Of a stretch of 64,000 nucleotides of DNA, positions 1 to 39,673 are shown in pieces (the stretch's first letter is position 1; the number at the start of each line of letters is the position of its first letter). The stretch comes from Planctomycetota bacterium (GTDB taxonomy: Bacteria; Planctomycetota; MHYJ01; JACPRB01). The notes under the pieces were generated by a model. That model searched no databases and had not been told where the DNA came from. It saw only the letters and a list, made by a program, of their open reading frames with translations. The DNA is taken from assembly GCA_041482015.1 (NCBI GenBank), contig JBGPCZ010000005.1, positions 4,109 through 68,108 of the forward strand, read 5' to 3'. The translations under genes and the position numbers were made by a program.

Positions 1-456
1 TCGCGGCTGCGGACCGATCTCATGAACCAGGGGGCACAGCTCCTCCTCTTCGGCGACATCCCCATCTCGTACGAGGTCTGGCAGTTCGATCCCGCCAAGG
101 GGACGTTCATGACCGACCCCGTGTTCGAGAAGCGCATCAAGATCGCGCGGAACGACCTCGACAAGACGGGCGCGGGCGCGGTGCCGCTCGTGTTCGTCCG
201 GGGCGACCTGACCGGCGACGGCCGGCCGGACATGGTCGAGGTGGACCCGAAGACGAAGGAGCTGCTGATCTACCCGGGCCGGGAGAGGGCGACGCCGAAG
301 GGCCCGAGGATCGACTTCGACGGCACGGCACACTACAGGATCCGGCTGGAGCGCCACCCGCGCGCGCTCCAGCTGCTCGACGTGAACGGCGACGGCATCC
401 TCGACGTGATCCTGTATTACAACAGTGCGGTGGGCCTCGTCCTGTCGAAGCGGTAG
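1..456 (+). CDS. FG-GAP/VCBS-repeat protein, C-terminal fragment (5' end lies outside the window)
   Basis: Frame 1 is open from base 1 to TAG 454-456. It contains DLTGDGRPDMV and DVNGDGILDVI repeats typical of FG-GAP/VCBS repeats, with GC3-rich codons. Confidence 0.6.
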   Translation, partial: SRLRTDLMNQGAQLLLFGDIPISYEVWQFDPAKGTFMTDPVFEKRIKIARNDLDKTGAGAVPLVFVRGDLTGDGRPDMVEVDPKTKELLIYPGRERATPKGPRIDFDGTAHYRIRLERHPRALQLLDVNGDGILDVILYYNSAVGLVLSKR

Positions 457-2566: not shown

Positions 2567-3241
2567 ATGGCGGAACAGGGAGCGGGAAAGGTCCAGGACA
2601 CCACGCTGCGCCGGGTCACCGGCGGGGCGGGCTTCAACGCCCGCGTCGAATCCTTCTGGCTCACCTTCTCGACGATCGGGCCGAAGATGGGATTCTTCGA
2701 GCGCCGGCGCGAGCGCGGCCGCCTCGAGCGCATCGTGAAATCGATCAACCTCCAGATCGTCGGCCAGAAGGGGAACCCCGACGGATGGGAGTTGCAGCAG
2801 GGCGCCTGCGTCTGCAACCTCCGCGTCGCGAAGATGGGCCTCGTGCGGGAGCTGAAGACCTGGCTCCGCGCCGGCCTGGAGACCGCCCCCGCGGAATGGC
2901 CCCATCTCCACGCGCTCCGCGACCGGCCCTGCATGCTCGTCCCCGTGACGTTCGGCGCGCCGATCTCCATCGAGCCGGGGGGCGGGGAGGAGGCCATCCC
3001 CGTCGCGAGCGCCGTCCGCGTGCGGGCCGAGCTGGGCGAGATCAACGATCGCTTCCGGATCCACGAGACGTTCGCGATCAAGAAGATGGTCGACTACATG
3101 GACGCGACGGAGCGCGACATCGCGATCTACGAGTCCAAGCTCGGCACCTCCGAGGGCTTCTGGGCCAAGTTCAGCTACGTCCTGCTCAAGAAGCTGATGG
3201 ACGTGAGCGTCGACAAGAAGCTCCCCGTCCTCTTCGCGTGA
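2567..3241 (+). CDS. hypothetical protein, co-directional 13 nt after the kinase
   Basis: 224-aa ORF with GC3-rich codon usage. I recognise no family. Confidence 0.55.
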   Translation: MAEQGAGKVQDTTLRRVTGGAGFNARVESFWLTFSTIGPKMGFFERRRERGRLERIVKSINLQIVGQKGNPDGWELQQGACVCNLRVAKMGLVRELKTWLRAGLETAPAEWPHLHALRDRPCMLVPVTFGAPISIEPGGGEEAIPVASAVRVRAELGEINDRFRIHETFAIKKMVDYMDATERDIAIYESKLGTSEGFWAKFSYVLLKKLMDVSVDKKLPVLFA

Positions 3242-3242
3242 T

Positions 3243-3635
3243 ATGACAAAGCAAATCGTTTATTTTATCATATCCCTCGCGGGCTGCGCCGCGGCCCCGC
3301 CGGTCGAGGAGTGGGGGCGGGAGTGCCGGATGGAGATGGACCGCGAGCGGCGGCTCGACCTCGTCCGCCAGATCATGGGCACGGGCGACGAGCGCGCGAT
3401 CCCCGTCCTGATCGACTGTCTCGCCTCCGTGAAGCGCCTCGGCAAGACCCCCGACCGGGTCTACCGCGCGAAGGCGATCGTCCCCAACGACACCGCGCCG
3501 CCCGAGTTCTGGGGACTCAACGTCATCACCGGGCAGGACTTCGACCTCGACATCGAAAAATGGTCCGCGTGGTACGAGCTGCACCGCGGCCGCTTCGAGT
3601 GGGACGGGGGCACGCGGCGGTTCGTCGCGAAGTAG
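3243..3635 (+). CDS. hypothetical lipoprotein
   Basis: 130-aa ORF starting 2 nt after the previous stop. N-terminal MTKQIVYFIISLAGC looks like a lipobox signal. Confidence 0.55.
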   Translation: MTKQIVYFIISLAGCAAAPPVEEWGRECRMEMDRERRLDLVRQIMGTGDERAIPVLIDCLASVKRLGKTPDRVYRAKAIVPNDTAPPEFWGLNVITGQDFDLDIEKWSAWYELHRGRFEWDGGTRRFVAK

Positions 3636-9891: not shown

Positions 9892-12225
9892 CTACTTCTT
9901 CACCGCCGCCTTGAACAGCTCCTCGATCTGCGCGTCGGTCAGCTTCTCCTCGCCGGTCGCGCCGATGACGAGCGCCTTGCCGGGCGCGGTCACGAAGATG
10001 AGCTCCGTCCCCATCTTGAGCGCCTCGACCAGTTTCGGCTCCTTCTCGATCAGCTTGAAGTACGCCTCGCCGCCGAACTTGACGACCGTGGTCGCGGCGG
10101 TCGCCTCGAACCGCTCGTCCACCCACATCTCGCGGTAGAGGTAGAACTTCGTCCCCGCCGCCTTTTTCGAGGTCGTGGGGCCCCGCTCGCCCGCCTTGTC
10201 CGTCTCCTTGAGCGACCGGAGGGCCATGGCGGCCTCGACGCCGGCCTTGCCGTCCTTCTGCTTGAATCCTTCGGCCAGGCTCCGGTCTCGATCCTCGGCC
10301 TCGCGGCGCGCCGGATCCGCCTTGGCCACATCGGCATGCAGTCTCGCTTCCGCCGGGGCAGGAGCCGTCGCCGGCTTGGCCGCGAACTCGGCGAGCTTCT
10401 TCTCGGCCAGGGCGTCGAACCTGCCGCCGCCCGTGGCCGCGTTCCGGCCGCGCGGCTCGCCCGCGCCGAGCTGCTGCTGGCCCTCCAGGATCAGCTGGCT
10501 CGTGTAAGGCGTCTGGATCCCGTACTCCTTGGAAAGCCGGATCACGTCGTCAACCAGCTCCTTCGTCTCGCCGTGCATCCGGACCTGGTCGAGCAGGTGG
10601 CCGATCCGCCGCTGCGCCCAGAGGATCTCGATGAACGCGTGCTTGGGCTCGGCCGCGGCGAACTTCCCTTCATAGGTGAACGTCTCGGTCTTCCCCTGCA
10701 CCCGGCCCGCGAGCTGGAAGGCGACGTCGCCCTCGCCCGTGTAGCGCCCGAAGAGGACGAGCTGGCTGCCCGCGTAGAGGTCCGGAAACTTGTGCGGGTG
10801 CATGTTGACGAGTTGCACCTTGTCGCCCACCACCTTGAGGTCGAGGCCCGTGAGCACGGGCTGCGCGGCCTTGTTGGCGAACGCCGCGACCTTGACCGCG
10901 ATGTCCTCCTCGGGCCGGACATACTCGCTCACGCCGCCCGCCTGCGAGGCCATCGCATCCAGCAGGTACGTGTCGACGTCGTAGCCCACGCCCCAGGTGA
11001 AGAGCCGGAGCGACTCGCCGCCCTTCGCGCTGCGCGCGGCGTCGACCTTCGCCAGGATGCGGCGCGGGTCGGTCGTCTCGCCCATCGTGGGCTTGCCGTC
11101 GGTCATGAACACGATGTAGCTCGGCCGCTCGCCCTCGCGCGGCAGGCTCTGGAGCGCCGTGTCGAGCGCGCCCGCGATGTCCGTGCCGCCCTGCGCGATC
11201 AGCGTGTCGGCGTACTTGAGCGCGTCCGCCCGCCGGTCTTTCGCGGAGACGAGGCCCTTCTGCCAGGAATCGGCGTAGCTCGAGAACTGAACGATGTTGA
11301 AGCGGTCCGTGTCGTTGAGCTTCTCGACGAGGTACTTGAGCGCGTTGCGGGCCTGCTTGATCTTCTCGCCCGCCATGCTGCCGGAGACGTCGATCACGAA
11401 GACCACGTCGCGCTCGATGATCCGCTGCGCCTGGAGCGTGCTCTTCGGCGCGACGAGGAGCATGAAGAAGCCGGGCTCCTTCGCGTCCGGCCGGTAGGTC
11501 ACCAGGTCGAGGCCGACCTCCTTGTCGCTCACCGAGTAGAAGAGCTGGAAGTCCTTCTCGAGCGTCGTGTGGCGTTGCGTGTAGGTGACCTTCGCCTCGC
11601 GGTCGTTGGGGCGCTGGACGTCGACCGTGTGGGTCGGGCTGTAGATGTTCAGGATCGGCGCGGCGCTCTTCACCGTGACTTCCAGGCCGAACTCGCCCTG
11701 GATGGTGGGGCCTTTCTTCTGGCCGCTGCGGACGGGGTAGGTGTACTGCACGAGCGAGTCCTGCGCGGGGACGACCTGCTAGAAGCGGAGCGTGATCGTC
11801 TGGCTCGACTTCGCGAGGATGGGGAAGATGTTCGCGCGGAAGAGCTCGGCGCCGAGGTACTCGAGGAGCCCCGGGTCCTGCGCGCGGTTGACAATCTGGT
11901 TGTAGACCCGGCGGGCCTCGTTCTTTTCGACGATCTGGCCCGATTGCTCCTTGCCGTTGACGAGCATCGTGAACTTGCTCATCGTGGCGCCCTTGGGGAT
12001 CGGGAAGACGTACTGCGCCTCGAGCTGCCGGTCGGTGTTGTTGACGAAGACCTGCTCGACGGTCGTGGTCGCCGCCTGCCGGTCGATCTCGACCTTCACC
12101 TTGTGCTTATGGAGCGCGAGCGGGGGAAGGTCGGGCTCGTTCGGGATGATGATCCCCTGCGCGGCCGCGGGCACCGCGGCGGCGAGGACCAGGACCAGCG
12201 CCAGGATCGCGTTTCGCATCTGCAT
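9892..12225 (-). pseudogene. VIT + von Willebrand A domain protein interrupted by one in-frame TAG (11779-11781)
   Basis: ORFs 11779..12225 (signal peptide plus VIT domain, ends ...ITLRF*) and 9892..11778 share one frame. The second ORF continues QVVPAQDSLVQYTYPV and carries the vWA MIDAS motif DVSGSM. The read-through product is a normal VIT-vWA architecture. Confidence 0.7.
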
Positions 12226-12365
12226 CGTCTTCCCCTTCCAGAACATGAATCGCATCCTTGGACGCGCGACTCCGGCTCGAGTTCGCGGAATTCGTGCGAA
12301 TCGGGAACTCTCGTCAGGCACGACGCGTCCAAGCGTCGTTCCTGACGAGAAGATAGAGGTGAACG

Positions 12366-13355
12366 ATGATCCGAGTGCTCCTCGCGGTGGTCCTGATGGC
12401 GGCGGTCGCCGCCGCCCCTGCCTCCGCCAAGGCTCCCGCGGGCGGGGATGAATCCCCCAACTGCACCAAGTGCGGCAAGCAGACCTATGGAACGTCGATC
12501 CAGTGGGCGGGCAGCCCGTCCGATGCGGCCGCGAAGGCCAAGCAGGACGAGAAGCTCGTCTTCGTCCTCCACGTCTCGGGCTATTTCGAGGACGCGAACT
12601 TCACCTGAAACAATGCCCAGGCGCTCCGTGTGAACGCCCTGGCGAACCCCGAGGTCGGCGCCTACATCAACAAGTACTTCGCCTCCTCGTTCCAGAAGGT
12701 GGCGACGTTCCGTATCGTGAACGGCCAGAAGCAGGGCGGGAACGTCGCGTCGTACTTCTGCGCGCCGGACGGCCGCGTGCTTCACTGCGTCGCGGGACCG
12801 GTCGACGCCCAGACGATGCTTCGCGAGGCGAAGTGGGTGGTCGAGAGCGCGAAGAAGGCGATCGAGGAGTCGAAGAAGACCGAGACGACCTTCAAGGCGG
12901 TCTTCCGAAAGATGCACGCGGAGAAGCTGCGGCAGGACTTCGGCCTGGTGGTCGAGCCCGTCGCCTTCGACGCGCCCGAGGCGGCGGACGACGGCCCGCT
13001 GACCTACCGAGACCCGACGGGCCGGCCGCTCGTGATCGCGCTTCCGCCCCCGCCGATCGACGGGCCGGACGTGCAGTTCCGCGCGAAGGCCGCGGCGGCG
13101 CCGCAGGCCGAGGCGGCGGGCGGCGTGCAGGACAAGGCCGGGCGCCGCTGGGTCCTGGGCAACGAGGGCCGCGTCCACCAGATGATGGCCGCCTACTCGA
13201 TGGTGAAGATCGAGCGGATCTACGGGGCGGTCTTCGAGAACATCCTGGGCGAGCGGGTGAGCACCCAGCCGGTCGTGACGCTCAACAGCCGCGAGGAGAC
13301 GCGCCGGAACATCTGCCTGACGTGCGAGTCGAAGGCGGCGCTCGATCAGAAATAA
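12366..13355 (+). CDS. periplasmic thioredoxin-fold (DUF255-like) protein containing an in-frame TGA at 12606-12608 (candidate Sec codon, or a pseudogene)
   Basis: ORFs 12366..12608 and 12630..13355 are in the same frame, with only the TGA between them. Signal peptide MIRVLLAVVLMAAVAAAPASA. The junction reads ...FVLHVSGYFEDANFT[TGA]NNAQALRVNALANPEVGAYINKYF. Confidence 0.55.
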
Positions 13356-34948: not shown

Positions 34949-36780
34949 GTTTCGAACACCCGCAGGGCCTGTGGCTCCTCGCCCTGGGGATCCCCATCCT
35001 GGTCTTTCACTTCTACAAGGGGAGGGTCCGGCGGATGCCGGTGCCGACGCTCCTCTTTTGGGAACAGGTGATCATCGAGGAGGAGCGGAAGTCCGCGCTC
35101 CGGAAACTGAGGCACGTCGCGTCGCTGCTCCTGAACCTTGCCGCGCTCTTCATCCTCACCTCCGCGGTCTCGCTCCCGGAGGTCAAGGGGATCTCGCGCC
35201 CGAAGGGCCGGTACGCGATCCTGCTCGACAACACCCCGTCGATGGGCGCGACCGGCGCGGACGGGCGGACGCGGCTCGACCTCGCGGTCGACCGCGCGCG
35301 CGAGTTCGTCCGCTCCCTCGGCCTCGGGGACCAGGCGGCCATCCACGACCTCTCGGGCGCGCGGGCGCCGTTCACCTCGGACCTCGAGCGCGTGGCGCGC
35401 CGGCTCTCGGTCCCGCCGCCCGTCGACCGTGCCGACCTCCGGGAGCGCGTGGAGGACGCGCTCGCCGCGGGCGGCGACGTCACGGCCATCCTGTTCACCG
35501 ACGCCCCGCCGCGCGGCGTGGACGACCTCCTCGCCTCCGGCCGGCTCCGGGTTGCGCGCGTGGGCGAGGCGGTCGACAACACGGGGTGGACGTCCGGCCT
35601 CGCGGTCCGACGGCCGGGCGAGAAGCGGGTGACGCTCTCGCTCGTCCTCTCCAGCTTCGCCGCCGCGAAGGTCGAGCGGAGCGAGGTGCTCCTGTTCAAC
35701 GGAAAGGAGATCGCACGGCGCGTGGCGCCGCTGGAGCCGGGCGCGCGGCTCGACCGGGAGTGGGCGCTGGATCCCTCGAAGTTCCCCGGCGAGAAGATCG
35801 AGGAGGGCGGGCTCGCGGAGGTCGCGCTCGAACCCCGCGACGCGTTCGCCGCGGACGACGTGGCGTCGTTCGTGGTGCCGCCGCTCGTCCCGCCCCAGGT
35901 CGTCGTCTTCCACGCGGGGAAGCCCGGCGAGTTCCTGATGAGCTCGCTGGACTCGCTGGCCGCGGGCGGCATGGTGCAGCACGAGATCCTGACCGCACCG
36001 GCCGCCTCGTACGCCAGGATGCGGCCGCGGATGGGCGAGGGGTGGATCGCGATCTTCGACCGCGTGGCGCCCCCCGTCCCGCCGGGGGACGGCGGCATCC
36101 TCATCCTCGGTGCCCCGGGCGGCCCGCCGGTCGAGCGCCCGACGATCGCCGACTGGGACCGCGACGCGCCGCCCAACCGGCCGAACGACTACGCGGGCCT
36201 GGTCCTGCGGCGGTCGCGGATCCTCCGGGGCACCCCGCTCCTCCGCGCCGTCGAGGGGCCGATCGCGACGTGGTCCTCCGGCGGCGGTCGCGCCGTCGTC
36301 GAGACGGGGTTTGCGTTCGCGCTCGAGGACGCGGAGCCGCGGCCCGCTCTCCCGATCCTCCTCTTCAACTTCGTCGACTGGGCGGCGTACCGCGGGCTCC
36401 GCTCGTTCCGCGCCGAGTACCGGGTGGGGGAGCCGATCCGGCCGGAGCGCCCCCTTTGGATCGAGGAGGGCGAACTGCTGGTCGCGCAGTCGGGGCGGAC
36501 CGAGCGGGTCGCGGTGCGGCAGGGCCGTCCGGCCCCCGCGCCCGTCGCGGGCCCCGGCTTCGTGCGGATCGGATCGGAGACGCGGACCGAGTGGACCGCG
36601 GTGAACCTGTTCGACGCCGCGGAGTCCGATCTCCGCCCGCGCGAGGAGGCGCCGATGGGGGCGCCGCTCCCGCCGCCCGCGCCGTGGCACGCGAAGATCC
36701 CGTACGCGACGCTCGCGGGGGCCGCGGTCCTCATGCTCCTCCTGTTCGAGTGGTGGCTTTTCCATCGCGGGGCGATTTGA
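34945..36780 (+). CDS. BatA-like protein (aerotolerance-regulator N-terminal double-TM domain + vWA-like region)
   Basis: The ATG overlaps the DUF58 stop (ATGA). The MSFEHPQGLWLLALGIPILVFHF...RRMPVPTLLFW N-terminal motif is followed by a second TM segment. Confidence 0.7.
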   Translation: MSFEHPQGLWLLALGIPILVFHFYKGRVRRMPVPTLLFWEQVIIEEERKSALRKLRHVASLLLNLAALFILTSAVSLPEVKGISRPKGRYAILLDNTPSMGATGADGRTRLDLAVDRAREFVRSLGLGDQAAIHDLSGARAPFTSDLERVARRLSVPPPVDRADLRERVEDALAAGGDVTAILFTDAPPRGVDDLLASGRLRVARVGEAVDNTGWTSGLAVRRPGEKRVTLSLVLSSFAAAKVERSEVLLFNGKEIARRVAPLEPGARLDREWALDPSKFPGEKIEEGGLAEVALEPRDAFAADDVASFVVPPLVPPQVVVFHAGKPGEFLMSSLDSLAAGGMVQHEILTAPAASYARMRPRMGEGWIAIFDRVAPPVPPGDGGILILGAPGGPPVERPTIADWDRDAPPNRPNDYAGLVLRRSRILRGTPLLRAVEGPIATWSSGGGRAVVETGFAFALEDAEPRPALPILLFNFVDWAAYRGLRSFRAEYRVGEPIRPERPLWIEEGELLVAQSGRTERVAVRQGRPAPAPVAGPGFVRIGSETRTEWTAVNLFDAAESDLRPREEAPMGAPLPPPAPWHAKIPYATLAGAAVLMLLLFEWWLFHRGAI

Positions 36781-36802
36781 GTTATACTCCGGTCGAACCC
36801 GG

Positions 36803-39673
36803 ATGAACTGGAAAGTCGCGGCGACCGTCCTGGTCCTGGTGGGCGCGCTGGCCATCCTCATCCTCCTGGCGCCCCGGCCCCCCGCGATCCCGCTTCCTCC
36901 CCCGGCGATTTCGACGCCCGTCCCTTCGAAGCCATCGCCCGAACTCGCACGCGACTACGAGGACGCCGACGAGGATGCGGTGATGGAGCTCGAGGACATG
37001 CTTTCGGATCTTGCGGCCCAGGTGCGCCGCCGGGCGTGGGGCGGCGCTCTCTACCACGTGGCGGCCGACTTCGAAGGGAGCCCGCTCCTCCGCGAGGCCG
37101 ACGGCGCCGCGCAGGAGGTCGGCGGGGTCTCGATCGCCACGGCCGGACCCGATGCGCGCCGCCTGGACCGCGTTGCGTTCGGAAAGGCGCTCGTGGAATT
37201 CCCCGTCGACTCCGCCGTCTTCAAGATTCCCCGGGCCAAGCTCGAAGGAGAGACGCTCTCCGGCCAACTCAAGCTCGACGCGTCGCGGACATCGGCGGGG
37301 CGTGCGAAGCGCTGGGTCTCGACGGGCAACGTTGAGTTCGTCCATCGGAACGGCCGCTGGCTCCTCCGGAAGTTCGACGGGGCCGGGGTGAAAACGGAGG
37401 AGGGCGCGGTCCGCTTCCTCGACGTGACCGCGCGTGTCGGCTTGAAGAGCCAATACGGGTACGACGATCGCGACAATACTCAGGTCACCTTCGGGCGGCT
37501 CTTCCTGGGCGGGATCGCCGCTGGCGACATCGACGGAGACGGGCGGGTCGATCTCTTCGTCCCGCAGATCGGCTCCAGCCTTCTCTTCCGAAACGAGGGC
37601 GGCAGGTTCCGCGAGTGCGCGAAGGAGTGGGGTATTTCGAACGAGGACACGGGGGCGGCGGCGATCTTCCTCGATTACGACAACGATGGGCTCCTCGACC
37701 TGCTCATCGTCAACCATGAGCCGGAGAAGGTGTGGGACCGGAAGACGAAAACGCGCGTCGACAACGCGGGCCACCGCGCGATCGTGCTCTATCACAACGT
37801 GGGCGGCCGCTTCGTCGACGTGACGCGGGAGGCGGGCCTCGAGTGCCGCGGCCCGGCGATGAACGTGGTTGCGGCGGACGTCAACGGCGACGGGCTGCTG
37901 GACTTCTACGTCTGCATGTACAAGGACGAGTCGCTCGACGACCCCGACGCGCCGCAGGAGGTGCCGCGCGACGTGGCGGGCGCGCGCGACGGCGTGCCGA
38001 ACCAGCTCTGGATCAACCAGGGGAACGGGACCTTCAAGGAGGAGGCGGCGAAGCGGGGCGTGGCCGACACGGGGTGGAGCCTCGCGGCGGCGTTCGCCGA
38101 TTTCGACGGCGACGGAAAGCCCGATCTCTATCTCGCGAACGACTACGGTGAGAACCGTCTCTACCGGAACCGCGGCGACGGGACGTTCGAGGACGTGACG
38201 TCGAAGAGCGGGACGCGCGACGCCGGGTTCGGGATGGGCGCGACCTGGCTTGACTACGACGGAGACGGCAAGCTCGACCTCTACGTCTCGAACATGTACT
38301 CGACGGCGGGGAACCGGATCCTCGCGCGCGGGCCGGGGAAGCTTTCAAAGGAGCGGCACGAGAAGCTCCTCAAGATGGCGAACGGGAACACGCTCTTCCG
38401 GAACAACGGGGACGGGACGTTCACCGACGTGACGAAGGAGACGGGCGTCGGACGTGCGGGCTGGGCGTGGAGCTCCGCGGCGTACGACTACGACAACGAC
38501 GGCTGGCCGGATCTCTACGTGTCGAACGGGTTAAAGACGTCGTCCTTCGCAGTGGCGGACACGTGAGCGCCCTTCTGGCGCCTGGTTCGGGCGCGCACTC
38601 TTCACGAGGACAAGGCCGATGCCGGTGTGCCTTTGACCCGGACGTTTCACGAGCATCTCGAGTCGATCGCGCAAGGGGACTTCCGGAACATGGAGGTGCG
38701 GAACCGTCTTGATGTCGCAGCGAGGTCGGGCCGGCCTGGCCCGATGACCTCGTTCAGCGGCAACGAGGCGAAGCCGCTCTTCAAGAACACGGGGAAGGGG
38801 GAGTTCGTCGAGATCGGGACGACGCTCGGCGCGTCGCGGACCGAGGACGGCCGCGGATTCGTGCTCGTGGACCTGGACGGCGACGGCGCGCTGGACGTGG
38901 TGATGCACAACTTCTACCGGAATCCGATCGTCGCGCTGATGAACCGCGCGGCGGGCGACAACCGGTGGCTGCGCGTGAAGCTGCGGGGGACGAAGTCGAA
39001 CCGGTTCGGAATCGGCGCGCGGGTGACGGTGAACGGGCGGGTACAGGAGCTGGCCTGCGGGTCGGGCTACCAGTCGGGGAACGCGCCGGAGCTGCACTTC
39101 GGGCTGGGCCGCGCGGAGAAGGCGCACGTGAAGGTCCGCTGGCCATGGGGCGAATACACGGAGGTGTACGGAGGACTCGAGGCGAACCGAATCTACACGC
39201 TGACGGAAGGGGACGCGGCCGCGCTGAAGTCGGAGATGCTGAAACCCGTGGTGATCGAGCCCGACCCGGTCGAGCCGGCGCCGGCGGAGCCGGACGTGCG
39301 CGCGGTGCTGGCGATGCTCAAAACGCTGGGCGGCGATCCGTCGCCGGTGAAGGGGCCGGCGATCGTGGTGCTGGCGAGCGTGGAGTGCCGGGTGTGCATC
39401 GAGGAATTCAAAAGGCACGACGAGCTCGAGGCCCGGGCGTTCGAGTCAGGCGTGGAGTTGGTCTGGGTGGCGACCGACCCTGACCGAAAGCTGGTGGATG
39501 AGCGGTTCAAGGAGAACCAGGCGACGTTCCGGCCGCTGTACCCCGCCGAGCCGTTGAAGGACGTGGCGACGCCGACCGTCTACCTCGTCAAGAAGGACCG
39601 GCTGGAGAAGTTCACGGGCCGGTTCGCGGTGACGGCGGCGCTGGAGGCGGCGAGGGACAAACCTTCCCGGTAG
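36803..39673 (+). CDS. CRTAC1/ASPIC-UnbV family FG-GAP protein with C-terminal thioredoxin-like CxxC domain, containing an in-frame TGA at 38564-38566 (candidate Sec codon, or a pseudogene)
   Basis: ORFs 36803..38566 and 38627..39673 are in the same frame, with no other stop between them. FG-GAP repeats (GDIDGDGRVDLF, DYDNDGLLDL, DVNGDGLLDF, DFDGDGKPDLY, DYDGDGKLDLY, DYDNDGWPDLY). UnbV-ASPIC region (NRWLRVKLRGTKSNRFGIGARV). C-terminal VLASVECRVCIEEF. Confidence 0.6.

Follow-up and report, generated by a model that had tools for sequence, protein, structure and literature searches.

Within the 64-kb stretch of planctomycetal DNA analysed here (64,000 nucleotides; hereafter 'the window'), ORF calling and translation place two open reading frames, 12366..12608 (80 aa) and 12630..13355, in the same frame, with only the TGA at 12606-12608 and 21 nt of open frame between them, such that the joined translation runs KLVFVLHVSGYFEDANFT, then the stop, then NNAQALRVNALANPEVGAYINKYF. 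Re-translation bears out both the shared frame and the joined product put forward in an earlier reading of this DNA (the original prediction), and the same gene layout is repeated in 80/80 related loci. In all likelihood, the two frames belong to a single gene whose product, an exported protein of ~33 kDa, carries selenocysteine (U) at the UGA; the features of the gene are collected in Table 1.

Table 1. Features of the gene, in window coordinates, with the basis on which each was assigned.
Feature	Position	Strand	Basis and remarks
Probable complete selenoprotein gene	12366..13355	+	329 codons including one in-frame UGA; ends at TAA 13353-13355
Putative Sec-type signal peptide (MIRVLLAVVLMAAVAAAPASA), cleaved after ASA	12366..12428	+	Read from the sequence by eye
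Predicted thioredoxin-like domain, ~residues 47-169	12504..12872	+	AlphaFold2 model of homologue P0050, offset of 14 residues
UGA very probably read as selenocysteine, residue 81, invariant T-U-N-N-A motif	12606..12608	+	TGA in 81/81 loci
SECIS-like hairpin	12619..12640	+	Pair counts, frozen synonymous sites, compensatory changes
C-terminal region, ~160 residues, no assigned function	12873..13352	+	Alignment conservation and model segments

The N-terminal fragments of homologues all begin with leaders of the MRRLL..GLCLAPL.GLALA type, and the putative signal peptide would imply export to the periplasm. At the other end of the protein, model and alignment together describe a helical hairpin, a low-confidence linker with PPPPIDGPDV and a C-terminal CLTCE; the family alignment conserves GRVHQxMAAYSMVKIExxYGxxFExILGE across this region, for which Pfam, NCBIfam and PDB sequence searches returned no match. 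A conserved operon partner was not found across the 80 loci, with a VIT-VWA gene adjoining the family gene in ~10 of them. We note that the neighbouring VIT-VWA gene has an in-frame TAG of its own, which, unlike the TGA at 12606-12608, is not conserved.

The TGA occupies the identical codon in all 80 related Planctomycetota loci that we retrieved as well as in the window (81/81), and its flanks are conserved in frame, the context in the related loci reading KLVFVLHVSGxFEDPxFT-U-NNAEALRVNAL; at this column the stop is TGA in every one of the 81 sequences and TAA or TAG in none. Identity to the window protein over the best tblastn segment is 55-77%, so the loci are not repeats of a single contaminant. 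Among the carriers is a cultured isolate, Gemmata algarum JC673 (locus L069), and the TGA is kept in two divergent subfamilies (L084, of low GC, and L085); no retrieved locus with the family lies outside Planctomycetota. Database proteins are correspondingly split into N-terminal fragments ending in FEDPxFT and C-terminal fragments starting at ~MNALANPEVG: a search with the joined protein gave 2314 matches, most of which, among the matches listed, start ~9 residues after U, whilst a search with an N-terminal profile gave 3120, of which the best 120 all end at FT. TGA is also the ordinary stop for many other genes of the window, from which it follows that the genetic code is not reassigned.

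Alignment of homologues, as the original prediction had suggested for scoring Cys against selenocysteine at this position, does find Cys-bearing forms (alignment A4 misplaced the N-terminal fragments, and A5, A6 and A8 were used in its stead). Two divergent full-length homologues have Cys at the column, P0365 (EFA-C-DTAESLR, codon TGC verified on the DNA) and P0375 (QFT-C-EAAESLR). A third, P0050 (locus L083; 63% identical to the joined protein by BLASTP), reads TGT there, with the downstream sequence otherwise identical and the SECIS sequence still present; it is the sole Cys form seen in the main clade, which has no established Cys lineage. Alternation of selenocysteine and Cys at a single column is the classical signature of such proteins, and a conserved in-frame UGA and Cys in homologues, two of the marks by which bacterial selenoproteins are recognised, are both present in this family. 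In some more distant homologues the column holds Ser (P0303), Ala (P0328) or Glu (P0349), so that the residue at the U column is not indispensable to every branch. Such non-Cys homologues had been named beforehand as grounds for rejecting a selenoprotein; they do occur, but do not refute the assignment, given that other homologues have Cys and that the main clade shows no variation in the TGA beyond the TGT of P0050. The UxxA motif, described at the outset as atypical, is invariant in the main clade, with Ala at its fourth position throughout.

Downstream of the UGA, a hairpin can be drawn whose 5' arm (12619-12626) and 3' arm (12632-12640) enclose an apical loop of 5 nt, CGUGU (12627-12631), lying at +22..+26 from the UGA and containing G23 and U24; its stem carries a bulged C at 12639 and a C.A mismatch (12624/12634), the latter present in 57 of the 76 distinct sequences. 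The inverted repeat originally proposed at 12617-12642 exists, but its core is 12619-12640, with the outer CC/GG pairs (12617-18/12641-42) specific to the window sequence, and the 11-nt loop then assigned to it was too wide; the proposal of a G/U-bearing loop at SECIS distance holds good, with a spacing that matches that of fdhF.

Across the 81 sequences this hairpin is above chance: the proportion of paired cells is 87%, whereas slid controls reach 23-52%, and the covariation score of 0.144 (0.082 when shuffled) was reached in 0/500 shuffles. At four of the eight pairs both partners vary, and the compensatory changes, CG to GC at pair 21-27 (both synonymous) and GC to AU at pair 18-30, lie in lineages whose nearest neighbours retain the ancestral pair. 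Codon entropy falls to 0-0.28 bits at codons +5..+9, as compared with 0.9-1.7 bits at comparable codons elsewhere, and the synonymous sites frozen here include the otherwise rare CGT. Taken singly, the window sequence does not lift the hairpin significantly above chance: it is absent from the MFE structure of 12600-12670 folded alone (z = +0.40 against shuffles), shorter stretches beating shuffles by a small margin only (z = -1.8 and -1.65) and the hairpin constituting the MFE of 12606-12650. RNAalifold, applied to the 81-sequence alignment, did not recover it and returned other weak structure with no covariation; we have nonetheless kept our own hairpin because of the pair counts, the slid controls and the synonymous-site data. 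Rfam scans of the hairpin region, at the gathering threshold and at E <= 10, yielded nothing relevant. What is expected of a SECIS element, namely a stem-loop at the canonical distance, G/U in the loop and covariation, is found here, albeit in a hairpin that RNAalifold missed.

The resemblance to the SECIS element of E. coli fdhF, which we fetched and folded for comparison, is one of architecture: in both cases the hairpin lies within the ORF and starts ~10-13 nt after the UGA, and the fdhF loop, at +22..+25/26, likewise has G23 and U24, bases reported by the Böck laboratory to be functionally important. The two differ in sequence, in the loop (4 nt, GGUC, in fdhF versus 5 nt, CGUGU, here) and in the stem, where a C.A mismatch or internal loop here stands in for the bulged U of fdhF.

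As to the nature of the protein, sequence searches say little. Pfam gave nothing for the joined protein at E <= 1 except noise, with neither Thioredox_DsbH nor Thioredoxin_7 among the results; NCBIfam, including its thioredoxin-family models, gave no match; and a PDB sequence search gave no significant one. The sole PDB sequence match, which pairs the MIDAS strand of the SpaC VWA domain with LVFVLHVSGxFE (E 0.86), is non-significant and was set aside, as modelling and Foldseek give a thioredoxin fold. A first AlphaFold2 model of P0050 was of low confidence around U; a second, built with distant full-length homologues, has a mean pLDDT of 74.9 and a pTM of 0.71, with core blocks at 82-97. In this second model the predicted domain order is a helix, β1 (KLVFVLHV), a β-hairpin insert and then α1, with U at its N-cap (residue 95 of P0050, directly before helix 96-106), followed by β2 (SSFQKV), β3 (NVASYFCA), β4 (RVLHCVA) and a long α3. 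The model also agrees with the earlier suggestion that the TGA falls at a redox-Cys position.

Foldseek comparison against the PDB returned, as best matches, 3ira and 7tkv (Thioredox_DsbH), AGR3/AGR2, 3f9u, 2kuc, 2lst, DsbH (2ju5) and DsbD-C, with scores to DsbH/Thioredoxin_7-type domains of E 7e-5 to 1e-2, probability 1.0 and target TM 0.44-0.69. Together, these results favour a fold resembling thioredoxin, of DsbH/Thioredoxin_7/AGR type, in which U is predicted to cap the N-terminus of α1. The closest structural relatives are thus the Thioredox_DsbH/DUF255/Thioredoxin_7 domains, with Chlamydia DsbH (3ira, 7tkv, 2ju5, 2kuc, 3f9u), and DsbD-C (1vrs, 6dnu). With the DsbH/DUF255 type the protein shares a layout of N-terminal helix ('s.eAa..Ak.e.K'), β1, active site, helix and 'hN..FV..hqKV' strand, but the likeness is at the level of fold only, and there is a CxxC there versus UxxA here, as well as an insert before the active site here; the DUF255/DsbH-type layout first proposed therefore stands for the fold, in model and Foldseek, but not as a Pfam DUF255/DsbH sequence match. 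There is no dithiol CxxC at the start of α1: with U first and the invariant Ala fourth, the site would be a mono-selenol one, more like the CxxS/CxxA variants. AGR2/AGR3 (PDI family, CxxS monothiol) offer a parallel, being secreted proteins of thioredoxin fold with a single redox residue that lacks a vicinal partner; hhalign found nothing against E. coli TrxA, and against AGR2 (sequence entered by hand) aligned U on the Cys of CPHS, pairing U-N-N-A-Q-A-L with C-P-H-S-Q-A-L at 18% probability. The AGR proteins are eukaryotic and have Cys rather than selenocysteine, and common descent is not claimed.

Genes for the decoding machinery are scarce on the DNA to hand. Neither tRNA genes (ARAGORN) nor selA, selB or selD (tblastn, the queries being the E. 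coli proteins) were found in the window, the latter absence having been noted from the start, and ARAGORN predicted 11 tRNAs in the 80 loci, none of them a tRNA-Sec. The same tblastn queries against the 80 loci found selA in one (L050), where SelA (PF03841, 487 bits) is encoded on the same contig as a family member, and no machinery in the other 79. A published table that gives selenoprotein counts by organism (Peng et al. 2016, PMC5029168, supplementary file 3) includes Gemmata obscuriglobus, Isosphaera pallida and planctomycete KSU-1.

Other explanations of the TGA have to be weighed against these data. That it arose from TGC or TGT in this genome only, through nonsense mutation, pseudogene formation or a base-call error, was a possibility a priori, and was the alternative raised in the original prediction; the TGT of P0050 shows that the data do include a single-base difference here. 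The presence of TGA in 81/81 independent loci, drawn from a range of species and assemblies, and in two divergent subfamilies removes that alternative, which we now regard as having a negligible chance of being right: the sequence to either side of the codon is evidently under purifying selection, the split gene calls number in the thousands, and the TAG of the neighbouring VIT-VWA gene, a true sporadic nonsense codon, stands in contrast. It is also very improbable that there are two genes here, the UGA ending an exported 80-aa peptide and a second protein starting at GTG 12630, with the hairpin serving coupling, attenuation or mRNA stability. Gene callers do predict exactly such a split, and many members have a GTG or ATG ~8-9 codons past the TGA; against this, the eight codons between TGA and start (NNAEALRV) are among the most conserved and remain in frame, free of indels, in 81 sequences, the stop is always TGA and never TAA or TAG, the C-terminal part lacks a separate signal peptide, and the Cys-bearing homologues are continuous proteins. 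Such a division would, moreover, cut the predicted thioredoxin fold in two, with β1 before the TGA and α1 after it.

A further alternative is that the UGA is read through in a programmed, hairpin-stimulated manner, with insertion of Trp, Cys or Gly instead of selenocysteine. The dearth of Sec machinery in the window and in 79 of the 80 loci would accord with this, as would the C.A mismatch and a hairpin sequence unlike that of the E. coli SECIS, but we consider it unlikely given that the position is a redox-active one at which homologues have Cys as the alternative, that loop spacing and G23/U24 match the fdhF element, that selA lies on the L050 contig, that Planctomycetes, Gemmata included, figure in the published table (PMC5029168), and that TGA is the usual stop elsewhere in the window. 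The in-frame TGA is thus very probably a real selenocysteine codon, with the identity of the inserted residue deduced from these several lines, and the original candidate-selenoprotein reading is supported: the recoded UGA is conserved, the hairpin covaries, Cys and selenocysteine are paired at the column, and the model is thioredoxin-like.

Drawing on this anatomy and on the known bacterial mechanism, we propose a model for selenocysteine insertion. As the ribosome nears the UGA, the hairpin would present its apical loop, with G23 and U24, and so recruit SelB.GTP.Sec-tRNASec, such that selenocysteine is delivered in place of release-factor termination. The product would comprise a signal peptide and then the thioredoxin-like domain, with selenocysteine at the position taken by the nucleophilic Cys of a CxxC; the UxxA motif leaves it with no vicinal resolving thiol. 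It probably acts in the periplasm as a single-selenol redox protein, either a thiol/disulfide oxidoreductase or one reactive towards peroxide or sulfenate, and would form a selenenylsulfide with a partner or substrate, or else with a distal Cys that is invariant and lies in the YFCAPDG strand. That selenocysteine is almost never replaced by Cys in the main clade suggests a reaction in which sulfur substitutes poorly.

Thioredoxin-fold selenoproteins of bacteria include Trx, DsbA-like, TlpA-like, Prx-like and 'VPGUxxT thioredoxin-like' proteins, as listed in a 2026 inventory that contains no UxxA family (PMC13188914, Table 1). With these the planctomycetal protein has in common a predicted thioredoxin-like fold with probable selenocysteine at the N-terminal end of α1, a hairpin in the coding region right after the UGA and Cys at the same column in some homologues; it differs in that none of their Pfam or NCBIfam models match it, in its UxxA motif, where the +3 residue is not Cys, Ser or Thr, in a β-hairpin insert of 8-9 residues between β1 and U, in its predicted signal peptide and in the extra conserved C-terminal region. 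Unlike them, too, the family was found only in Planctomycetota among the loci retrieved, with selenocysteine essentially fixed in the main clade.

We lean, by a small degree, towards a broader reading, whereby this undescribed family of exported UxxA selenoproteins, with its essentially fixed selenocysteine, and a second undescribed selenoprotein of FG-GAP/UnbV_ASPIC type in the window (UGA 38564-38566) together reflect a sizeable and mis-annotated periplasmic selenoproteome in the largely aerobic Planctomycetota. If this is true, the mis-annotation is systematic and that selenoproteome is missing from current inventories. Thousands of entries for the present family stand as two truncated 'hypothetical proteins', which the selenocysteine reading would restore to one exported redox protein, with a putative and unusual single-selenol UxxA site in the periplasm; a new selenoprotein model can be offered to resources such as NCBIfam or Pfam, and a family would be added to a phylum that is barely mentioned in the selenoproteome literature covered by our limited search. 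Cultured Gemmata species carry the gene, which makes 75Se labelling, mass spectrometry and genetics feasible, and the conserved SECIS, with its natural compensatory variants, affords a view of what planctomycetal SelB recognises.

Finally, the second in-frame TGA of the window, in the FG-GAP/ASPIC gene, is likewise conserved, and this suggests that the finding at 12606-12608 is not isolated. A metagenome scan for the FG-GAP gene gave one remote locus. The TGA is followed by a hairpin with the same spacing as at 12606-12608, and close homologues of the FG-GAP/UnbV_ASPIC protein have a C-terminal CxxC or a redoxin-type domain.

Translated across TGA 12606-12608, the gene at 12366..13355 gives a joined product of 329 residues (...QDEKLVFVLHVSGYFEDANFT-[TGA]-NNAQALRVNALANPEVGAYINKYFASSFQKV...), and we propose that this UGA very probably encodes selenocysteine (Sec), assisted by a functional SECIS. 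The original prediction of a candidate selenoprotein is supported by the conserved TGA, by Cys at the same column in distant homologues and by a covarying hairpin; its description of two ORFs in one frame, parted by the TGA and 21 nt, also matches the sequence, and both halves carry the codon-position G+C pattern of a real gene (G+C of the window, 68%).

The TGA is conserved rather than accidental. The joined sequence, used as a protein query, brought up 2314 relatives and, among the 120 matches listed, almost all are ~240 aa and cover just the C-terminal 72% of the query, the subset inspected starting ‘MNALANPEVG’. The corresponding N-terminal profile search gave 3120 matches; all 120 listed measure 53-109 aa, and those aligned run from a signal-peptide-like leader to final residues that are exactly ‘...FEDPRFT’. 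Taken together, these fragments indicate that gene callers have split the family at one codon on a very large scale. At the DNA level, we checked 80 related loci from species-representative genomes, all Planctomycetota (spanning Gemmataceae, Pirellulaceae, Singulisphaera and others, one being the cultured isolate Gemmata algarum JC673): TGA stands at the Sec (U) column in 80/80, the frame 5' of it is open in 80/80, and across these loci and the window no indel separates the two halves and conservation of the peptide around the codon is strong (KLVFVLHVSGxFEDPxFT-U-NNAEALRVNALANPEVGK).

The original prediction had allowed for a nonsense mutation or base-call error, an alternative that falls to the presence of TGA in all 80 loci and its retention in two far more divergent subfamilies (L085, and L084 of a low-GC organism). 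What such an event looks like can be seen in the neighbouring VIT-VWA gene, where an in-frame TAG aligns with Glu (GAG), Ala, Gln, Thr or His in homologues; since they vary at that codon, the TAG reflects a pseudogene, a sequencing error or a nonsense change that is not conserved. TGA 12606-12608 is, unlike this TAG, conserved, and a sporadic origin is ruled out. The genetic code is standard, because TGA terminates many other genes in the window.

Features of the candidate selenoprotein gene, its homologues and related loci (hairpin numbering counts from the U of UGA; P, homologous proteins; L, related DNA loci)
Feature	Position	Strand	Basis or detail
N-terminal frame, 80 codons	ATG 12366 to TGA 12606-12608	+	ORF reading
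Continuation, same frame	21 nt open to GTG 12630, then to TAA 13353-13355	+	ORF reading
Hairpin	arms 12619-12626 and 12632-12640, loop CGUGU 12627-12631	+	alignment and folding
Proposed pairs	14-35, 15-33, 16-32, 17-31, 18-30, 19-29, 20-28, 21-27; loop 22-26
VIT and VWA domain gene with in-frame TAG	12321..9892, TAG 11779-11781	-	...SQTITLRF-TAG-QVVPAQDSL...
VIT-VWA adjoining, divergent	9892-12321 beside 12366-13355	-/+	window; also L001, L002, L003, L007, L009, L018
VIT-VWA adjoining, downstream		same	L005, L036, L045
Split FG-GAP/UnbV_ASPIC gene, one frame	36605..38566 and 38567..39673, TGA 38564-38566	+	...NGLKTSSFAVADT-U-APFWRLV...
selA in a Gemmataceae MAG	L050:7095-8555		~6 kb downstream of family member; PF03841, 487 bits
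P0365	U column		Cys, TGC verified in DNA; EFA-C-DTAESLR
P0375	U column		Cys; QFT-C-EAAESLR
P0282	one position before U column		Cys; NRF-C-ASKVEHFR
P0303	U column		Ser; KFT-S-SDAEALR
P0328	U column		Ala; TFT-A-VNVESLR
P0349	U column		Glu; RFT-E-KNAEALR
P0050 model, N-part	helix 65-75, strand 78-85 (KLVLVLHV), small β-hairpin
P0050 model, U column	residue 95, directly preceding helix 96-106; then helix 109-118
P0050 model, following elements	strands 119-127, 141-146, 151-157; long helix 162-183

The codon-anchored alignment (81 sequences) shows GCGCUCCGUGUGAACGC (+16..+32) to be nearly invariant, third codon positions included: codon entropy is 0-0.28 bits at codons +5..+9 (GCG CTC CGT GTG AAC), against 0.9-1.7 bits for comparable codons (Ala, Leu, Val) in the rest of the gene, and the Arg codon of this stretch is CGT in 78/81 sequences where Arg elsewhere is CGC. 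Over the 81 sequences, 87.2% of cells are paired, as against 23-52% with the partner slid, and the covariation score of 0.144 (0.082 when shuffled) was reached in 0 of 500 shuffles. Both-sided changes affect 4 of the 8 pairs. L020, L054, L063 and L064 have G21-C27 in place of C21-G27, both substitutions being synonymous (UUG for CUC at Leu, GUC for GUG at Val), and the same change converts the usual C19.A29 mismatch to U-A; in L019, L032 and L056, G18-C30 becomes A18-U30, with a G.U intermediate in L073. As nearest relatives keep the ancestral pair in most cases, these compensatory changes have recurred.

The hairpin (12619-12640) is the minimum free energy structure of 12606-12650; single-sequence folding z-scores of the region are unimpressive, RNAalifold on the alignment did not recover it, and an Rfam scan found no family matching the region. 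The stem-loop as originally drawn captured the outer part of the real structure, but with three inner pairs missed its loop was read as 11 nt rather than 5. When 45 nt from the UGA of E. coli fdhF are folded, the apical loop GGUC falls at +22..+25, the same spacing as here, with G23 and U24 common to both; these two bases we take to be SelB contacts. By analogy of this anatomy with the known bacterial mechanism, with the UGA positioned in the A site, the hairpin loop would be bound by SelB.GTP.Sec-tRNASec.

Within the main clade a single continuous protein was found, P0050, in which the codon is TGT and the downstream hairpin sequence is intact; the TGT has arisen very recently or is a read error. 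Searching representatives clustered at 50% identity, which gave 564 clusters at E <= 1e-3, added distant homologues that are continuous. The expectation of Cys or Sec at this column holds for P0365 and P0375, so that the classical Sec/Cys pairing is present, but not for P0303, P0328 and P0349; in P0108 and P0313 the whole segment is missing. The residue has been given up in some branches, and Sec is practically fixed in the main clade.

As to the decoding machinery, a search of the 64-kb window for selA, selB and selD homologues found none, in agreement with the original prediction, and nor does it hold a tRNA gene. The SelA encoded in L050 is 48% identical to that of E. coli, with neither selB nor selD adjoining. 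A supplementary table of Peng et al. 2016 lists 3 selenoproteins for Gemmata obscuriglobus, 1 for Isosphaera pallida and 6 for planctomycete KSU-1 (PMC5029168). Sec decoding in this very organism is supported by another conserved TGA (...AVADT-U-APFWRLV...), lying between five FG-GAP repeats upstream and FG-GAP plus UnbV_ASPIC downstream. Homologues P0391, P0446 and P0428 (85%, 65% and 54% identity) stop at the same point, C-terminal halves P0447 and P0448 begin just past it, and the TGA was verified in the DNA of L088 and of the 54%-identical L089. The hairpins 3' of it have apical loops at +22..+24 (GUU, GUC) on differing stem sequences. Relatives bear a C-terminal redoxin or CxxC domain, and the downstream ORF of L089 also has a redoxin/thioredoxin-type domain. 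This gene is probably a second selenoprotein, absent from the 2026 inventory.

The kind is well known, namely a thioredoxin-fold selenoprotein decoded via an intragenic SECIS. The family itself is uncatalogued in NCBIfam release 20, where none of the models (many recent selenoprotein models included) matches, and in the 2026 review (PMC13188914), whose Table 1, by its own account the most comprehensive inventory, has no UxxA motif and no FG-GAP or ASPIC family; the review makes no mention of Planctomycetes. Planctomycetota also go unmentioned in the main texts of the BSepDB, deep-Sep, GOS and ISME papers; in this limited literature check, an earlier report may have escaped us. What sets the family apart is its UxxA motif, export, Sec fixation and phylum. 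Seven MAGs (L019, L029, L031, L032, L039, L042, L064) are titled ‘uncultured Alcaligenaceae bacterium’, probably a taxonomic mislabel, their gene sequence being Gemmataceae-like and otherwise Planctomycetota-specific.

Pfam, NCBIfam and PDB sequence searches with the product gave no match, including to its conserved last ~160 residues. P0050, which shares 63% identity, was modelled in AlphaFold2 from an alignment whose rows were N- and C-terminal fragments; a first run was uncertain around the U column, and adding distant continuous homologues gave a mean pLDDT of 74.9 and pTM of 0.71, with core blocks at 82-97. Foldseek against the PDB placed Thioredox_DsbH domains (3ira, 7tkv) at the top, followed by AGR3/AGR2, the cytochrome-c-biogenesis thioredoxin domain 3f9u, 2kuc, Thermus thioredoxin, Chlamydia DsbH and the DsbD C-terminal domain (probabilities ~1.0, target TM-scores up to 0.69). 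The proposed DUF255/DsbH-type assignment thus stands at the level of fold, but not as a sequence match to those Pfam families. When the family is aligned by hhalign with an approximate human AGR2 sequence, U falls opposite the Cys of CPHS (U-N-N-A-Q-A-L against C-P-H-S-Q-A-L), a weak pairing at 18% probability. The β1 strand and loop at 12546-12590 (KLVFVLHVSGYFEDA) resemble the VWA MIDAS strand of pilus protein SpaC (DIVLVVDMSGSME) non-significantly (E = 0.86), a curious likeness beside a VWA-gene neighbour; given the structure model, we read this segment as thioredoxin fold.

The protein's N-terminus resembles a Sec-type signal peptide, and we infer a periplasmic redox protein with a selenolate at the helix N-cap, the position at which the nucleophile is activated in thioredoxin-fold enzymes. 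With U-x-x-A and an invariant Ala the centre would be a mono-selenol and, there being no vicinal thiol, the oxidised form would be resolved either by a partner or substrate thiol, as in the CxxS proteins AGR2 or ERp44, or by the distal Cys of YFCAPDG, resembling atypical 2-Cys peroxidases. That Cys is invariant, 51 residues downstream of U, and kept even in homologues without U or C. The reaction could be thiol-disulfide exchange or peroxide/sulfenate chemistry. Members of the window's own clade also have a CxxC at the mature N-terminus (12459-12470, N-C-T-K-C; CTKCGKQTYGT) and another at the C-terminus (13318-13329, C-L-T-C; CLTCES), four Cys in all that might bind a metal or link the termini through two disulfides; Gemmataceae members have one N-terminal Cys only (TCGxxGT), and some are devoid of the C-terminal CxxC.

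Gene context gives no help with function: the sole recurrent neighbour is the VIT-VWA gene, adjacent in ~10/80 loci in varying orientation, which could reflect a functional link or common ancestry of the closest relatives. The distant homologue P0365 is flanked by SurA-like peptidyl-prolyl isomerase and pyridine-nucleotide-disulfide-oxidoreductase-like genes (faint Pfam matches; L091:1-796, 1001-2380, 2602-3380), a setting that would fit a role in redox chemistry or folding in the envelope.
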